From: a virus
Length of the DNA stretch: 64,000 nucleotides
Virus record (IMG/VR): IMGVR_UViG_3300024265_000031
Direction: 5' to 3' (one strand)
In this document: positions 1-11,804 of the stretch, piece after piece
Position numbering within the stretch: the stretch's first letter is position 1
Layout of the letters: each line of letters begins with the position of its first letter
The notes under the pieces: generated by a model
Seen by the model: the letters and a program-made list of their open reading frames with translations, nothing else
Database searches by the model: none
What the model was told of the DNA's origin: nothing
Program-made: the position numbers and the translations under genes

Positions 1-1117
1 CGCCAGGACTTTCAGTGGTTCCAGCAAATAATCCTCCCAACATTACTGTAGAGGCTCCTGCGGCTAAAGCTTTAGTTATATCGCCAGAATATCTTATACC
101 CCCATCAGCAATTATGTGCTTATTCAATCTTGTAGCAGCCTTTGAACATTTCATAACTGCTGTTAACTGAGGCACTCCTACACCAGCCACAATTCTTGTC
201 GTACAGGAAGCCCCAGGGCCAATTCCAACTTTTACTGTGTCTGCTCCCGCGTCTAATAAATCATTTACTCCACTGGCTGTAGCAACATTTCCACCAACAA
301 TATCCACATGTGGAAATTTTGTTCTAATCTGTCTTATTGTTTTCAGAACAATTTCATTATGACCATGTGCCACATCCACTACAATTGCATCAGCGCCAGC
401 TTCTACAATGGCCTCTACTCTTGCCATATAGTCGCCAATTACACCAACAGATGCACCAACTTTGTATCTTTCATGTTCATCAACAGTAGAATTAGGATAT
501 TTTTCAGAATTCTCTAAAGACTTTGCCGTAATAAGTTTTATAAATTTATAATACATTTGCCTTTCACTTATTATGGGTAATTTTTCAACTTTATGCATTT
601 TGAAAAATTCTTTTGCCTCATCTTTGGTTGGAATGTCCGTCAAATAAAAAATGTTTGACATTGGTGTCATTAGTTCAAGCGCAGTCTTAGACAAATCTGT
701 TTCATAAACATAATCTCTTTTAGAAACAATACCCAAAAAACTATTTTGTGTGTCTACAACAACAAATCCCGTCTTATCAGAATAGCTAATTAATTCCTTC
801 ATTTCTGCAAGAGTAACTAAAGGCAAAATCTTTTGTGGATCCTCAATCGTATGTCCAGCATAATTTTTCACTCTTTTAATATGCCAGACCTCTTCTTCAA
901 TAGACATAAACCTGTGAATAAATCCAATGCCACCAGTCTGAGCCATAGCAATAGCCATGTTTGACTCTGTTACAGTTGCCATATTTGCAGAAATCAATGG
1001 TATATTCAAAACTATTTTTTCTGTAAGATTTGTAGCCAGGGATACATTAGATCTACTATCAATAAATGATCGTTTAGGAACTAGAAGCACATCGTCAAAT
1101 GTCAAACCTTTTATCAT
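1..1117 (-). CDS. guaB: IMP dehydrogenase with CBS domains (3' end beyond window)
   Basis: Not in the ORF track because it runs off the window. Manual translation from ATG at 1117 gives [14 protein letters not shown]...[13 protein letters not shown]...GGIGFIHRF and the catalytic loop [23 protein letters not shown]. Confidence 0.92.
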
Positions 1118-2188
1118 TTAGATAAACCTTGCAAGATTTTTCTCAATAGTTTCCCAATCAATGATTCCACCAGTTCTGTCAATGATGGAATCGTAAGATT
1201 TGCCCGTATTCAATATTGTAATTGGTAGATTAGTTAACATTTCAATCTTATCAATTAGATGGTGTATCTTGGGCGTAATTTGATTGGCATTTGTAGTATT
1301 ATTTATATTGATATCATAGTGCTCACAAAATGTAAGTGCAATTTGTGTTGCGCCATTAACTTCAACCGCATACAACAACTGTTCAAAATCAATCCCAGAT
1401 GCCTTACGCCTGGTTTTGCCATAAATTGAACTAGGTTCTGCAAAGCCCATAGAATCCAATTGATCATATTGAAGCTCTGGTACATCTCCCATATTGCCAG
1501 CACCCTCCCTGGATGGCAATGCCTTTACCACCAAAACAACTTCTTTCAAATTTTGCCAATTCAAAAGCACATCATCTGCCGCAGCCATAGCTGTAACATT
1601 GTCTGAGGTTACGTTAGGGTAGTCACCTATAGACAGCGAAAGAAATGTTCCTTGAGAGGATTCAATCATTACAACACCTTCTTTAGAACCTTGATTGATT
1701 TCTCCGCTAACCTCAGTCAAAAATTCCTGAAGCACTTCAATATCTTTAGCTTGTTGAACTTTACGAAGAGCAAGATCAGCCCTACAATATCCAGTTCCAC
1801 TCATTGTGGATCCAATATTGTTCATATCTTTACTGTCATATTCTGCTTGAATGTGTTCTGGGGTAATGATTGGACAATGCCTGTCTATTTTTACACGTTC
1901 TCTTAGGTTATACCTATCCATTTCGGCAAACAATTTTACAGGATCTACAGCAACACCACTGCCGATTCTAATTTGTGTTTCAGGATTGAATATCCATCCT
2001 AAAGGAAGTTGGTTTGCTTTGAGATAGGTTGTTTCATTTTGCATAAAGATGCCATGCTCTGCATTAGCGCCAGTTCCAGCACGACATACCAATTTAGAAT
2101 TTTCTCTTACACTGAGATATGCATCAATCAACCCCTTTCCCTCATCTCCCCACTGCGCCCCAACGACAATCCATGCTCCTCTATTCAA
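1118..2188 (-). CDS. purA: Adenylosuccinate synthetase family protein, short (archaeal/PurZ-clade-like) form, divergent
   Basis: GAQWGDEGKG P-loop, IGSTMSGTG, ESSQG..LSL..G.YPNVTS; 356 aa. Confidence 0.8.
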   Translation of the reverse strand: MNRGAWIVVGAQWGDEGKGLIDAYLSVRENSKLVCRAGTGANAEHGIFMQNETTYLKANQLPLGWIFNPETQIRIGSGVAVDPVKLFAEMDRYNLRERVKIDRHCPIITPEHIQAEYDSKDMNNIGSTMSGTGYCRADLALRKVQQAKDIEVLQEFLTEVSGEINQGSKEGVVMIESSQGTFLSLSIGDYPNVTSDNVTAMAAADDVLLNWQNLKEVVLVVKALPSREGAGNMGDVPELQYDQLDSMGFAEPSSIYGKTRRKASGIDFEQLLYAVEVNGATQIALTFCEHYDININNTTNANQITPKIHHLIDKIEMLTNLPITILNTGKSYDSIIDRTGGIIDWETIEKNLARFI

Positions 2189-2240
2189 TACTGTTCTCCT
2201 TTTTGTTTTTTATTTTCTCAGATAAAACATCTATTTTATC

Positions 2241-3221
2241 TTAGATTCGATATAATGGGCATTCTCTATTATTACTCCAAAGCCTATTTCGCCATTCTTT
2301 CATCTCTGAAGATAACCAAATATTGTTCAAGAAATCAATATCTCCTAAAAGATTTAGTTTGAATGTATTGTTTTCAGTAAATGAACAAGGGGAAACGTAT
2401 GCATCAACATTGATATAGATAGAAAACAATCCAGACTCGCAAGGTTCTGCATATATTTGAGCCATTGCTTCATGCTGTGTTCCCCTTACTGCATTCATAT
2501 ATTTATGAGCAGAACAAGAATCGAATCCCAGTGGAATATCCCATATTGCAGCCTTTTCAATAAGATTGTTGAATTCTTTTTGATTAAGTTGTGTATATTT
2601 ACTACCCCTTCCACATTTTTTCAAAGACAATAAAACAATTGCATTTATTTTTTTCTTTCTGCTATCTTCTATTTGTAGAAAATCATAGAGATTACTCAGC
2701 GTTTCTTTTGCAAGCATATAATGTACGTTCACTTGATTCAATCCCGCATCAGACAACATTTCAACAGCATTCAAACATACTGTATGATCATAATTGCTTA
2801 CAGCAATAGCTCCACAAAGATTAGCAAGATCTTTCGCTATCTTTGGCACTATCTGATATCCGTTGATAGTCAAATTAGGAACAACATTGTTCTCCCTGCA
2901 GTAATTAAAAATTTTTAACATATCTGGATTGCTATCAAGATCTCCTATTCCAAAAGCAATTTGAGTTATGGTGTCTGGCAATTTGACAAACACTTTTTGA
3001 AAAGTTTCTAGTGTCATATATCTGCCATATATTGTATTTGATTTATAACAGAATGAACATCCTTTATGACATATAGTAGAGATTTCAATATCTGCTATCT
3101 CTGGCCCTAACTCACACCATTGAGGATCTTCTTCTAATGTTTTACCCCATCGTGCCATAAACCCAGTTATTGGATTGAATATCATATTGTAATTTTTCGT
3201 GTGTATTTGTTTTGTTTTCAT
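2241..3221 (-). CDS. Radical SAM enzyme with C-terminal SPASM/twitch-like domain
   Basis: CHKGCSFCY (CxxxCxxC) motif; C-terminal PCESGLFSIYINVDAYVSPCSF...ECP. Confidence 0.9.
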   Translation of the reverse strand: MKTKQIHTKNYNMIFNPITGFMARWGKTLEEDPQWCELGPEIADIEISTICHKGCSFCYKSNTIYGRYMTLETFQKVFVKLPDTITQIAFGIGDLDSNPDMLKIFNYCRENNVVPNLTINGYQIVPKIAKDLANLCGAIAVSNYDHTVCLNAVEMLSDAGLNQVNVHYMLAKETLSNLYDFLQIEDSRKKKINAIVLLSLKKCGRGSKYTQLNQKEFNNLIEKAAIWDIPLGFDSCSAHKYMNAVRGTQHEAMAQIYAEPCESGLFSIYINVDAYVSPCSFTENNTFKLNLLGDIDFLNNIWLSSEMKEWRNRLWSNNRECPLYRI

Positions 3222-3226
3222 TTGTA

Positions 3227-3637
3227 TTATTCGCCCACGATTATATTGAATGTTTCCTCATTGTTCATGACGTTTAGAAAATTAATAAATGATTCATCAT
3301 GATAATCTATGTCTGCTTGCAAAATAATAAATCCTTCTTCTATTTTGGACTTGCATTTTTTATATGTCTTTCTATAATATTCTTCATCATCCAATATTTT
3401 TTCTAGGGTGTCAAACTTTCCCCAACAATGCTCATCAACAAAATATTTGTCTAGCTCTTTGACAGTTTTAATTTGTTCCATTTGATTAGACAATGCACTT
3501 AAGAATGTATCAGTAAAGGTCTTTAAAAATGGATATTTTTCTAGGGTTTCTTTATCAAATATCTCTGAAGATATTTTGGATGCAATCATGTAAGAGGAGG
3601 TAGAACTATTACTTACAAATCCTTGTCTAATTTTCAT
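3227..3637 (-). CDS. MKIRxGFVSNSSSSS-motif protein 4
   Basis: N-terminus MKIRQGFVSNSSTSSY. Confidence 0.85.
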   Translation of the reverse strand: MKIRQGFVSNSSTSSYMIASKISSEIFDKETLEKYPFLKTFTDTFLSALSNQMEQIKTVKELDKYFVDEHCWGKFDTLEKILDDEEYYRKTYKKCKSKIEEGFIILQADIDYHDESFINFLNVMNNEETFNIIVGE

Positions 3638-4107
3638 CCATCCCTCCAGCCCTCTTCATAATATGAAACATCTGAAACATCAAAATCTATATTGAATTGT
3701 TTTTTAATTTCTTCAACAACAATTTGGGGAATTTCTGAAATCTTTCTGTCTGGATATTCTTTTAAAAATGTTTCTGGCATAATGCCAACAAATCTTTCAT
3801 AGTCCCACGGCCCACCCTCTGTCAGATTACCTTTATTTTTTACTTCTTCATCGAATTCATTTTGAGCATATTCAATCTTTTCATCATTTGTTTCACATTG
3901 TTTTAATTCTGCGATATATTCTGGAAATCTTTTTTGCACATAGTCATTGTCAATTTCTTTGGATAATCTTTCTTCATATTCGCTTAATGCATCTTGAAAA
4001 ATTTTTAACCATACATTATCACTGATTTCTATTCTCTCAGATGAAACACCCCATGCCGCAAAACTACTTGTGCTACTGTTGGATACAAATCCATTTCGTA
4101 TTTTCAT
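3634..4107 (-). CDS. MKIRxGFVSNSSSSS-motif protein 3
   Basis: Start re-assigned to ATG at 4107; MKIRNGFVSNSSTSSF. Confidence 0.85.
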   Translation of the reverse strand: MKIRNGFVSNSSTSSFAAWGVSSERIEISDNVWLKIFQDALSEYEERLSKEIDNDYVQKRFPEYIAELKQCETNDEKIEYAQNEFDEEVKNKGNLTEGGPWDYERFVGIMPETFLKEYPDRKISEIPQIVVEEIKKQFNIDFDVSDVSYYEEGWRDG

Positions 4108-4108
4108 T

Positions 4109-4408
4109 TTATGAACTCCATTCCACACAATCCATATTGACACCTATTTTTTCTAAAAATAATTCCATATTGAAATTATCCATGAACACATTGCCCTCAA
4201 TCTTTCTAGAGGTTTCAGAAATATTCCAATTAAAATTGAGATTTCGATAATCGACATCGGGGTGAATTCCACATTCCGACCCAAATAATAAATCATCAAT
4301 TTCAATATGTTTTCTTATGAGTTGTAATTGAATATCAGTAAGCTTATTCTTACTAAGAACAAAACTTGAACTACTACTGTTACTTACAAAACCATTTCTA
4401 ATTTTCAT
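4109..4408 (-). CDS. MKIRxGFVSNSSSSS-motif protein 2
   Basis: MKIRNGFVSNSSSSSF. Confidence 0.85.
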   Translation of the reverse strand: MKIRNGFVSNSSSSSFVLSKNKLTDIQLQLIRKHIEIDDLLFGSECGIHPDVDYRNLNFNWNISETSRKIEGNVFMDNFNMELFLEKIGVNMDCVEWSS

Positions 4409-4417
4409 TTTATTTTC

Positions 4418-4918
4418 CTAATGTTTGCTTATTCTTATGTGTGGCAAATTTCTGAATATATTTCCATGTTCAAGAAAGCATTCATATTGTCCACCATTAT
4501 CACTATACTCAAATAGAGATATGAAACAACCATTATTATCTTGTACAAATTTTCTAAAAAATTCGGAATTTTTAATGGCTTCTAAAGTTGCTTTGTTATA
4601 CCCTTCCCAATCGTAGTCTCCATCTTCAACAAAGTCTTCATAGTCTGGAAGTTCGCCATCAATTTCATAAACAGTTCCACAGCTTAGTTCTTTAATAATT
4701 TCCGATTCACTTATTGAGATTTTTGATATATCCATAAAGATTTTTTCTGAAATTTCTTCTGTAGTATAAGAAGATGTGTCTACATAAGGATGATTTAACC
4801 TTTCTTCTCCATCATACATAAGCTCTTTTGTTTTCTCAACCGACAATGGCTTATTAGGAAAGGCTACTACAAAACTGCTACTTGAACTATTGCTTACAAA
4901 TCCGTTTCTAATTTTCAT
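4418..4918 (-). CDS. MKIRxGFVSNSSSSS-motif protein 1
   Basis: Start re-assigned to ATG at 4918 (AGGAGA RBS); MKIRNGFVSNSSSSSF. Confidence 0.85.
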   Translation of the reverse strand: MKIRNGFVSNSSSSSFVVAFPNKPLSVEKTKELMYDGEERLNHPYVDTSSYTTEEISEKIFMDISKISISESEIIKELSCGTVYEIDGELPDYEDFVEDGDYDWEGYNKATLEAIKNSEFFRKFVQDNNGCFISLFEYSDNGGQYECFLEHGNIFRNLPHIRISKH

Positions 4919-4936
4919 GTATTCTCCTTGTATAAT

Positions 4937-4965
4937 ATCATACCATACTTTTTCAGTCTTGTCAA
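4937..4965 (-). promoter_or_regulatory. sigma70-type promoter for the MKIR/radical SAM operon
   Basis: TTGACA-17nt-TATGAT with TG extension on the minus strand. Confidence 0.8.
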
Positions 4966-4980
4966 GATAAAACCTAGATT

Positions 4981-5235
4981 TTATATTATAAATGGTGGGA
5001 TTTCTAACCACCAAACATCATTGTATTTATTATAATCGATATCTTTGAGATCATATCCAAATGTAGAACTTCCAGACCATGCCTTTTCCATTACATATAT
5101 CATTCCATCAAGTTCTCTACAAGCGTATTTGCCCATCAACAATCTAATGATTGTACGAATTAAAAATGGTTTCTCTAAATACGCCCTTACAAAATCAGTG
5201 GCCCATCCTGAAAGAACAATACATTCACTTATCAT
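4981..5235 (-). CDS. hypothetical protein
   Basis: Probable ATG at 5235 (MISECIV...); stop TAA lies inside the palindrome at 4967-4984. Confidence 0.55.
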   Translation of the reverse strand: MISECIVLSGWATDFVRAYLEKPFLIRTIIRLLMGKYACRELDGMIYVMEKAWSGSSTFGYDLKDIDYNKYNDVWWLEIPPFII

Positions 5236-10553: not shown

Positions 10554-11804
10554 TCATTGTGTTGTCAATATTTCTGTTCTAATCTTATCTAATATTTCTT
10601 CAATGTCCATATTCATCAATACCATATTTTGTATCTCTGCAATTGTAATATCTTCTCTTATATTAAATTCAATTTTAATTTCTTTATCAAAAAATTTGCT
10701 CAAAAAATCTTGTACCATTTCTCTAGTAGCATAACCAATTTCTACCTTCAAATCTATTCGACCTGGTCTAATAAGGGCAGAATCTAATTTTTCAACATGG
10801 TTAGTTGTAGATACTAAAATTCTTCCATGAGAAGAAAAAAATCCATCAATAGAATTCAAAATTCCAGATAAACCAATTTTATTTATATCATCAAACAAAC
10901 TATCTATTTCTTCTATTTCATTCTTGCCATTCTTTTTATTTGTTTTTTTCTTACGACTTTTTGTAAGATTGCTGGAATCAATGTCTTCGATAACAAGAAT
11001 AGCCCTATCAGGTAACTCGCTCACCGCACTTTCTATTTTCATTAAGCTTTGAGCCCCCAAATAAAAAATAGGATAGTTTAAATATGTTGCAATTGCTTTA
11101 ATCATGCTCGTTTTGCCAGTGCCAGGATGACCATGCAATAATATTCCCAATTGATAAGGTATTCCCATATCTATATACCAATCTTCTTTTTCAATAAATC
11201 TATCTAAACTATCAAATATTATTTTTTTCTTATTGCTCTCTAAAAAAACACTTTCGGGATTCCTTGAAGAAATATTTTTAACATAAGACCAATAAGAATG
11301 ATCCATTTTATATATTTCGATTCCCTCCTTTTGTGAAATCGAATCTGCATTTTTTACAAAACTTTTTAGAATATTTGAATTTCTTCCTAAACATGTTAGC
11401 TTCAAACTGTCTTTTTCATATTCAGTATTATTTGCGCTTTCTTTATCAATACGAACAATAATTATTCGTTTTTCATAAAGAATAAAATGAGTTCCATAAC
11501 CCATAGAAATAGTAATAGCTTTATCACCGCCATATCTTCCACTTGTAACTTTCAATCTTCTAAAATTTTTATCTCCATAATTATCTTGCAAAGTTTTTAA
11601 AATTTTATAATAAACAATATTGGCATTTGACATTTCAATATCGGTTGTAAAAAATCTTTTTATATTATTGATTATTGATAATGGAAGATCTTTAATCCAA
11701 AAAGTTATTATGCCAGCACCACTTAAACCAATAAGAGTTGTTAACAGTTGATTTTCCTCAATTTTTGCAATAATTGTTTCAATGATTTTTATAATGTCGT
11801 CCAA
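10554..11804 (-). CDS. BCS1-like AAA+ ATPase with N-terminal membrane anchor
   Basis: Walker A GHPGTGKT, Walker B VIEDID, LSGILNSIDG, TTNHVEKLDSALIRPGRID. Confidence 0.85.
   Translation of the reverse strand: MDDIIKIIETIIAKIEENQLLTTLIGLSGAGIITFWIKDLPLSIINNIKRFFTTDIEMSNANIVYYKILKTLQDNYGDKNFRRLKVTSGRYGGDKAITISMGYGTHFILYEKRIIIVRIDKESANNTEYEKDSLKLTCLGRNSNILKSFVKNADSISQKEGIEIYKMDHSYWSYVKNISSRNPESVFLESNKKKIIFDSLDRFIEKEDWYIDMGIPYQLGILLHGHPGTGKTSMIKAIATYLNYPIFYLGAQSLMKIESAVSELPDRAILVIEDIDSSNLTKSRKKKTNKKNGKNEIEEIDSLFDDINKIGLSGILNSIDGFFSSHGRILVSTTNHVEKLDSALIRPGRIDLKVEIGYATREMVQDFLSKFFDKEIKIEFNIREDITIAEIQNMVLMNMDIEEILDKIRTEILTTQ

Follow-up and report, generated by a model that had tools for sequence, protein, structure and literature searches.

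A conserved PurA-like branch common to large phages and CPR bacteria has an apparently rebuilt aspartate site and is a tentative candidate for direct amination of IMP

The short, divergent purA-like gene on the 64,000-nucleotide stretch of IMG/VR virus record IMGVR_UViG_3300024265_000031 (the window, here always meaning the whole stretch) belongs to a branch of the adenylosuccinate synthetase (AdSS) superfamily, here called clade A, which is unstudied, strongly conserved and common to large phages and tiny bacteria of the candidate phyla radiation (CPR). The route from IMP through adenylosuccinate to AMP, in which PurB follows PurA, is to our knowledge taken to be universal. Tentatively, and with a probability that we would put a little below even, we propose that the clade A enzyme is a GTP-dependent IMP aminating enzyme that would use ammonia instead of aspartate and would have no need of PurB. 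This proposal is built on a conserved phosphoryl-transfer site, an aspartate site that has lost its usual contacts and gained others, and the distribution of PurB among the cellular carriers.

The window protein is a member of the AdSS superfamily with the PF00709 fold. It scores 154.6 bits against PF00709, for which the cut-off is 27, and its best solved relatives in a HMMER search are the P. horikoshii AdSS structures 5k7x and 2d7u, of 337-340 aa (E 3.5e-66, residues 6-339). The structural model called for by the original prediction was made with AlphaFold2 and is confident (predicted local distance difference test, pLDDT, 95.8; predicted template modelling score 0.94), with a dip in pLDDT to 77 at the SSIYGKTRRK loop. 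With this model as query, 43 AdSS/PurZ chains made up the top of the Foldseek list, and the fully ligated P. horikoshii enzyme, 5k7x_A, was matched with TM scores of 0.89/0.94 and a root-mean-square deviation of 1.5 A. The N-terminus MNRGAWIVVGAQWGDEGKG aligns with the starts of homologues, which is consistent with the TTG start of the gene.

As canonical PurA (EC 6.3.4.4) we took a protein with Asp13 and Lys16 in GDEGKG, Asn38, Gly40 and His41 in NAGH, Thr300, Thr301 and Arg303 in the aspartate-binding loop, and the Asp of (T/S)K(L/M)D. The window protein has GDEGKG with both the Asp and the Lys; in NAGH the Asn and His are kept and the Gly has given way to an invariant Glu, and the x-T-G-R of the aspartate loop is replaced by SSIYGK. 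The retained Asp and the altered NAEHG, SSIYGK and TFCEH motifs all lie where the original prediction had placed them when the protein is aligned with 5k7x, and their counterparts in 5k7x/2d7u (HMMER alignment) are NAGHS, GTVTGR-RRR and TMLDK. The motifs of P. horikoshii PurA are canonical, and the same substitutions were therefore not found in a verified archaeal enzyme. The protein of that structure, PH0438 (5K7X, 2D7U; NF003295), is likewise compact (~340 aa, 37% identity) and shares with the window protein the Asp and Lys of the P-loop, the Asn and His of NAGH, IGSTxSGxG and the Gln of xxQG, but it has NAGHS, TRVG, GTVTGRRRR, TMLDKYD and KTGPE where the window protein has NAEHG, SREG, SSIYGKTRRK, TFCEHYD and NTGK, and the window protein's cellular relatives are without PurB. 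The long bacterial PurA (E. coli 1ADE/1CG0, H. pylori 6ZXQ; TIGR00184) has the same fold and dimer Arg, and the two-step chemistry through 6-phosphoryl-IMP would be expected in both, but it is ~75 residues longer, is 22-23% identical and has the canonical Asp loop and metal-site Gly.

The window protein falls below the cut-offs of all five NCBIfam equivalog models of PurA, namely NF003295 (274 bits against 368), TIGR00184 (180 against 395), NF002223 (140 against 402), NF010355 (102 against 445) and NF010357 (66 against 700). At minimum, no model that clade A passes backs its existing annotation as adenylosuccinate synthase. The protein was also correctly predicted not to be a standard PurZ, an identity that is excluded by the kept Asp15, by a score of 117.4 bits against the cut-off of 300 for NF038379 (PurZ) and by a separate branch in the tree. 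An excerpt of PMC12884076 gives Ser in place of Asp13 in 100% of 147 phage PurZ/PurZ0 sequences, and one of PMC8342488 gives Gln or Asn at the PurZ guanine-specificity position. PurZ and PurZ0 (6FM1, 7ODX, 7VF6; NF038379) resemble the window protein in being phage-borne, compact PurA homologues without the Arg303-type contact to the 2'-OH; however, PurZ carries Ser in place of the catalytic Asp but keeps the aspartate-contacting tip of the loop (T273-T276 in S-2L; PMC8342488), and the window protein does the reverse. Its matches to PurZ structures have E values of 1e-7 to 4e-8, and that to the PurZ0 structure 7VF6 has an E value of 2.3e-14.

Of 1973 candidates from a word-indexed search through 5.8 billion proteins, 435 were hits, and our residue counts rest on the best 120 of these homologous clusters, the window's own protein included (identity to the window protein 52-67%, or 52-100% with its own protein counted). 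D15, K18, N42, H45, Q179 and the dimer Arg R142 are invariant or nearly so in these clusters, with D15 and K18 in 118/118 aligned members and R142 in 119/120, and the catalytic machinery is thus kept. The replacements are E44 in all 119 aligned sequences, E228 in 119 of 120 clusters, S253, S254 and I255 in 120 each, and the basic loop residues R260 (120/120), R261 (119/120) and K262 (120/120). At the positions of the old contacts, residue 256 (E. coli T301) is Gly in 87 and Glu in 17 of the 120, residue 258 (R303) is Val in 51, Lys in 34 and Ala in 22, and residue 259 (R304) is Ile in 62 and Thr in 29. With the old contact positions variable and their replacements near-invariant, the alignments argue that the aspartate site has been rebuilt under selection, and that the motif changes mark a family and reflect neither chance nor decay. 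A one-off degenerate gene or pseudogene was ruled out by the 120 clusters with invariant replacements, the intact reading frame and the good ribosome-binding site. The guanine motif is less changed than had been implied: it does read TFCEH at the place of TKLD, but the equivalent of the guanine-specificity Asp, position 289, is always acidic (Glu in 64 and Asp in 56 of 120), and the Lys, Phe in the window protein, is already Met in the solved P. horikoshii PurA.

The changed residues have described roles in the canonical enzyme. Excerpts of PMC8342488 have Arg303 of PurA (E. coli numbering) contacting both the O2' of IMP and the aspartate substrate, a conserved Val beside the ribose C2', the tip of the loop touching aspartate, and the Gly and His of NAGH together with the next Thr holding the triphosphate. 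For H. pylori AdSS, the available portion of PMC11571797 describes a hydrogen bond from Arg294 to the IMP O2' and binding of O2' and O3' by the Val264 carbonyl, and that of PMC11276676 gives the metal six ligands (the alpha and beta phosphates of GDP, the Gly39 backbone carbonyl, Asp12, a ligand in the 6-phosphoryl site and a ligand in the hadacidin/aspartate site), places the Asp loop at residues 289-294 and names Asn37 as the IMP-binding Asn. Because Asn37 is the IMP-binding Asn, Gly39 is the Gly of NAGH, and as its carbonyl ligates the metal, Glu44 of clade A would sit on the metal-touching residue next to the aspartate site. Glu228 aligns with the Val beside the ribose 2' position, and the Arg that serves both the 2'-OH and aspartate is gone in clade A.

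The phylogeny with PurA and PurZ that had been suggested was computed with FastTree on 330 trimmed columns. The sample comprised 36 loci from species-representative genomes, 5 IMG/VR loci and 150 representatives taken from an exhaustive HMMER scan, in which 5058 hits reached E <= 0.001 and just 45 reached E <= 1e-30; rows outside 300-460 aa, locus open reading frames (ORFs) outside 320-400 aa and the locus L019 were left out, and motifs were tabulated for 145 full-length family members. The tree has four groups: clade A; clades B and C; archaeal short PurA with bacterial long PurA; and a large PurZ-like group with Ser13 or Gly13. The window protein lies outside the PurZ-like branch and in clade A, which is monophyletic (28 tips, support 0.999) and carries the motifs GDEGKG, NAEHG, ExSQG, YPNxTSDN, P(T/S)REG, ExSSI..RRK, LTFx[DE]H and NTGK. 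Clade A members are Microgenomatia (CPR) bacteria and phages, and the window protein is placed in a phage-rich subclade (support 0.94) that includes uncultivated virus genomes of 168, 123, 119 and 59 kb and is sister to a Microgenomatia subclade (support 0.918), with deeper Woesebacteria lineages outside both. The distribution is patchy: the clade occurs in 2 of the 401 Patescibacteria sampled, in 5 of 401 members of the class to which the Woesebacteria genome G003 belongs, and in 2 of 286 from the order of G003; the genomes G915 and G113 (400-bit hits) are deep members by motif. We note that four metagenome-assembled genomes (MAGs) titled Gammaproteobacteria, Nevskiaceae and similar, some of them the same contigs as G490, G646 and G505, which are placed in the class of G003, fall in a CPR class, and their titles look wrong. 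The window protein has no close relative in GenBank phages, where the matches comprise 98 records, all below 60% identity, with the first-ranked at 30%. No description of clade A, of a short CPR PurA without PurB or of a direct IMP aminase was found in the literature searched, subscription papers and supplements being outside its reach.

Clades B and C are nearest to clade A, with a support of just 0.666 for the joint node, and their members come from Chloroflexota, Rubrobacter, Longispora and one Saccharibacteria genome. LTFC[DE]H[YF]D, xTGK, RRK and length are common to all three clades; clades B and C differ from clade A in having GDSGKG, NAGH(S) or NAGA(S), RVG and, as an intact Asp loop, EYGxxTGRxRRK, and clade C is without the catalytic His. 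Genes of the B/C type are extra copies beside canonical PurA in Longispora, Kouleothrix and one Actinomycetota MAG. The clade C paralogues of Chloroflexota, Longispora and Actinomycetota (L013-L015, L021, L022, L024, L026, L028, L036) have NAGAS, with His replaced by Ala, and keep the Asp loop; a TrmB-type regulator lies upstream in 2 clade C loci, and the neighbourhoods scanned for clades B, C and D showed no purine theme.

The two changes at the heart of the altered site occur together across the family. Glu at the NAGH Gly is present in 32 of the 145 members, namely 28 of clade A, three Bathyarchaeia paralogues and P0220, and the x-T-G-R loop is found in 0 of these 32 versus 51 of the 113 without the Glu, or 43 of 59 among those without it that keep Asp13. 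The Glu arose separately in clade A, in the Bathyarchaeia paralogues, which are nested in archaeal PurA with weak support (0.53-0.76), and in P0220. As such, the change of Gly to Glu and the loss of the aspartate loop seem, from the motif table and tree, to have arisen together more than once, and the Bathyarchaeia pairing is apparently a second independent case. In the Bathyarchaeia MAG contigs, L031:1894-4233 and L032:112-1611 hold tandem PF00709 ORFs, the second ORF standing beside the scanned PurA-family gene; in L032-L034 the scanned gene is a paralogue with NAEHG and a wholly different loop, E.ETAI.YERPGGIRR, and L032 has a partial PF00709 ORF upstream.

PurB, sought as the Lyase_1 domain, is differently distributed among genomes with the two kinds of PurA. 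A class sample of 401 genomes contained 115 with a PurA-family match and 166 with a Lyase_1 match. Lyase_1 was found in 97 of the 107 CPR genomes of this sample that have a canonical long PurA, often a few hundred bases away and often as the next gene. In contrast, it was found in none of the five clade A genomes of the sample (G003, G006, G490, G646 and G505) and in none of eight clade A CPR genomes once G007, G915 and G113 were added, a count that excludes the genomes of L002 and L010. ADSL_C was not found in G003, G006 or G007, and G003, assembled as one 905-kb contig, has no PF00709 gene besides that of clade A. Fisher's exact test of six high-scoring short-type genomes against those with canonical PurA gives p = 3e-6, kinship being ignored. 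Lyase_1 is present in two genomes with another short PurA type (G624 and G583).

We therefore consider how the clade A enzyme may work. As the phosphoryl-transfer residues and the acidic guanine-specificity residue are kept, IMP is most likely still activated with GTP. The O6 of IMP would be phosphorylated as in PurA, a small nitrogen nucleophile, most likely ammonia, would be transferred in the stead of L-aspartate, and the product would be AMP directly, with neither adenylosuccinate nor PurB involved. Ammonia is proposed because it is the smallest change that would give PurB-less carriers AMP. The carboxylate of Glu44 may take the place at the metal and on the Arg305 side that is filled by a substrate carboxylate in canonical enzymes, and Glu228 may take over recognition of the 2'-OH from the lost Arg303. 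The use of hydroxylamine by E. coli AdSS, which in the available part of PMC12026682 makes N6-hydroxy-AMP from IMP with hydroxylamine replacing aspartate, offers a chemical precedent by analogy. The original prediction had suggested a different amino acid or a different NTP. Comparative evidence, from the loss of the Asp loop, the invariant Glu at a metal-ligand position and the missing PurB, is consistent with a nucleophile other than L-aspartate; a changed NTP is not favoured, as the acidic guanine-specificity residue is kept.

Several points weigh against ammonia as the nucleophile. We know of no enzyme that aminates IMP directly. The invariant R260, R261 and K262 could still bind carboxylates, and S253 and S254 could replace the Thr hydroxyls. 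Two of two clade B CPR genomes (G585 and G009) are also without Lyase_1, though clade B keeps NAGH and the TVTGR loop, so that the absence of PurB is not specific to the altered loop and may stem from some other trait of these lineages. In G008, a 2.1-Mb MAG with a clade A gene, two genes match Lyase_1; the clade A gene is there found on an 11.5-kb phage-like contig with an intein-bearing Pol III alpha. Most clade A genomes are drafts of 0.6-0.9 Mb, and their lack of PurB is subject to MAG incompleteness. The viral records with clade A (PurB in 0 of 5) are no test, because phage hosts supply PurB.

The genomic context of clade A was scanned at 13 loci over plus or minus 4 genes. An IMPDH/GMPR-family gene is found in 4 of the 13 (L007, L009, L010 and L041), as well as in the window, where the purA-like gene ends with TAA (1120-1118) immediately before the ATG (1117) of an IMPDH-family ORF; the proximity to guaB that had been noted thus holds, the ORF running off the window before the diagnostic flap. 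A phosphoribosyltransferase is found in 3 of the 13 loci (L005, L009 and L037): in the phage L037 HGPRT lies directly upstream of the clade A gene (TIGR01203, 164 bits against a cut-off of 150), and in L005 an APRT (187 bits against 143) and an HGPRT-like gene lie upstream. GMP synthase (GuaA) was missing from all five clade A genomes that were searched for it, of which only G505 has a strong IMPDH-family gene. The neighbour in G505 is IMPDH-like without the CBS region, and may be a GMP reductase feeding IMP, because without GuaA an IMPDH would give dead-end XMP. The CBS-less neighbours in L007 and L009 score 302-308 bits as IMPDH versus 205-226 as GMPR, and the two scores are near-equal in L010. 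These neighbours point to purine salvage, with IMP as its hub, as the context of clade A. In the phage, the enzyme and the product of the abutting IMPDH-family gene may steer IMP into adenine and guanine nucleotides during infection. In the 168-kb IMG/VR phage L037, the HGPRT and clade A pair is preceded directly upstream by two small genes of the Acb2/Tad1-hairpin type (anti-CBASS/Thoeris sponge-like; L037:6908-8001).

A fuller version of the proposal, which we consider possible and on balance doubtful, is that clade A proteins are GTP-dependent IMP:ammonia ligases ("AMP synthases") that would convert IMP to AMP in one PurB-free enzyme with Glu44 in the place of the aspartate carboxylate, and that they would be an adenylate module traded between CPR bacteria and large phages; with a GMP-reductase-like neighbour they would form a two-gene converter of guanine to adenine, possibly re-using the released ammonia.

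The main rival is that clade A is an ordinary adenylosuccinate synthetase acting on IMP, L-aspartate and GTP, with an aspartate pocket rebuilt from Ser253/Ser254 and Arg260/Arg261/Lys262, its product being cleaved by host PurB in the case of phages and by an unrecognised lyase in CPR bacteria. We regard this as a genuine possibility, if not a probable one. It fits the canonical fold, the full set of phosphoryl-transfer residues and the three invariant basic residues that remain in the loop, and relatives are annotated as adenylosuccinate synthase in their source records. The PurB-less clade B genomes with their intact Asp loop likewise leave room for a PurB-independent fate of adenylosuccinate or for missing data. 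It is harder to reconcile with the lack of conservation at T301 and R303, which recognise aspartate, beside invariant replacements, with the gain of two acidic residues in the site, with the failure of the protein to reach any PurA equivalog cut-off, or with the contrast in Lyase_1 between clade A and canonical CPR genomes; we know of no alternative adenylosuccinate lyase.

An unlikely alternative is that a different amine, either another amino acid or a cationic amine drawn by the new pair of Glu residues, is joined to IMP to give an N6-substituted AMP that either is the end product or is later cut back to AMP. In favour of this, the gain of E44 and E228 and the loss, in most members, of the equivalents of R303 and R304 shift the net charge at the site by about -3, and an FAD-dependent PF21688 protein that adjoins the gene in L001 and L005 could in principle cleave an N6-substituent oxidatively. 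However, this candidate trimming enzyme was rejected, as it is present in just 2 of the 13 loci, both from Microgenomatia, and is no conserved neighbour. Cellular carriers need plain AMP, and in G003 the clade A gene is the sole PurA homologue; the replacement of Thr300 by an invariant Ile and of Thr301 mostly by Gly would also suggest a smaller pocket.

That clade A is PurZ-like, or acts on another nucleotide such as dGMP or XMP to make a non-canonical base for phage DNA, is highly improbable: the gene is phage-borne and adjoins guaB, R303, whose 2'-OH contact is displaced in PurZ according to an excerpt of PMC8342488, is gone, and the protein matches phrog_1211 ("2-aminooxy adenylosuccinate synthetase", a profile of 414 positions with a generic name), but the catalytic Asp, PurZ score and tree position described above speak against it, a scan of the 38 larger window ORFs with Pfam or PHROGs, which left out small ORFs and the other ~86 kb of the phage, gave none of DatZ, MazZ/DUF550, DpoZ, DutZ and DmtZ, and in CPR bacteria members of this clade are single-copy, housekeeping-type genes beside HGPRT. 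The modified purine for virion DNA that the original prediction had envisaged is accordingly unlikely, because clade A behaves as a housekeeping gene in CPR bacteria: free CPR genomes have no other PurA homologue, and its neighbours are HGPRT and IMPDH/GMPR-family genes, as would suit an ordinary supply of adenylate.

If IMP is indeed aminated directly, central nucleotide metabolism would gain a new reaction, and enzymology a natural case of a synthetase that swapped its amino-acid nucleophile for ammonia. The purine capacity of CPR/Patescibacteria genomes, in which purA without purB now looks like a broken pathway, would be read differently, and phages would have a one-gene means of raising adenylate supply. 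If clade A is instead an ordinary AdSS, it would show an alternative design of the aspartate pocket, and the PurB-less CPR genomes would still have to be explained.

The window comes from a large phage of ~150 kb: the cluster of its PurA-like protein sits on a contig of 150,239 bases, and the window itself has ~32% G+C, 14 tRNA genes and ~140 mostly small ORFs packed on one strand. Its phage genes include those for a sliding clamp, HNH endonucleases, DNA methyltransferases, a guanylate kinase and an NT5C deoxynucleotidase, and a protein of 680 aa is 64% identical to proteins of the Bacillus myophages BCP78 and TsarBomba. A CPR bacterium as the source was ruled out by the tRNA genes, the one-strand packing of small ORFs, the PHROG hits and the myophage match. 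The coordinates of the purA-like gene, its sites and its neighbour are collected in Table 1.

Table 1. The purA-like gene of the window, its sequence motifs and the adjoining gene
Feature	Position	Strand	Details
PurA-family gene, 356 aa, clade A short type	1118..2188	(-)	TTG start, TAA stop; PF00709 E 4.5e-45
Ribosome-binding site AAGGAGA	2195..2201	(-)	6 nt before TTG start of purA-like gene; read from sequence
P-loop GDEGKG, residues 14-19, catalytic Asp15 kept	2132..2149	(-)	Read from sequence
NAEHG, residues 42-46; Asn and His kept, Gly replaced by Glu44	2051..2065	(-)	5k7x alignment
PSREG, residues 225-229; Glu228 replaces Val of canonical TRVG	1502..1516	(-)	5k7x alignment
SSIYGKTRRK, residues 253-262; replaces Asp-binding loop G(A/T)(T/V)TGRRRR	1403..1432	(-)	5k7x alignment
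TFCEH, residues 286-290; aligned with TKLD/TMLD of guanine pocket	1319..1333	(-)	5k7x alignment
IMPDH-family gene with CBS region, runs off window	2..1117	(-)	PF00478 E 1.5e-108; TIGR01302 414.8 bits, profile positions 1-367 of 450

Immediately upstream of the purA-like gene, a short palindrome, GATAAAA...TTTTATC (2202-2240, minus strand), lies in the 52-nt spacer that separates it from a radical SAM/SPASM gene (2241-3221, minus strand; PF04055 and PF13186, phrog_7293). No support was found for a link between clade A and this upstream gene: in none of the 5 viral loci does a radical SAM gene adjoin the purA-like gene, and there is one weak Radical_SAM hit four genes off in L003. Directly upstream of the radical SAM gene are four consecutive paralogous ORFs (3227-5014, minus strand; 136, ~158, 99 and ~167 aa) with a common N-terminus, MKIR(N/Q)GFVSNSS(S/T)SS(F/Y), after which they diverge; their 13 invariant columns are all N-terminal, and one of the four matches phrog_7397. 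One possibility is that the shared N-terminus serves a radical-SAM maturase as a leader-like tag. Elsewhere in the window, a ~23-kb sugar-nucleotide/glycosyltransferase block (13694-36685, minus strand), unusually large for a 150-kb phage, encodes a UDP-glucose dehydrogenase, two epimerase/dehydratases, a GHMP kinase, a GFO/IDH oxidoreductase, GT2 and GT1 glycosyltransferases and ~12 ORFs of 220-330 aa, and a phage BCS1-like AAA ATPase (PF08740 BCS1_N and PF00004; phrog_7485) is encoded at 10554-11804 on the minus strand.

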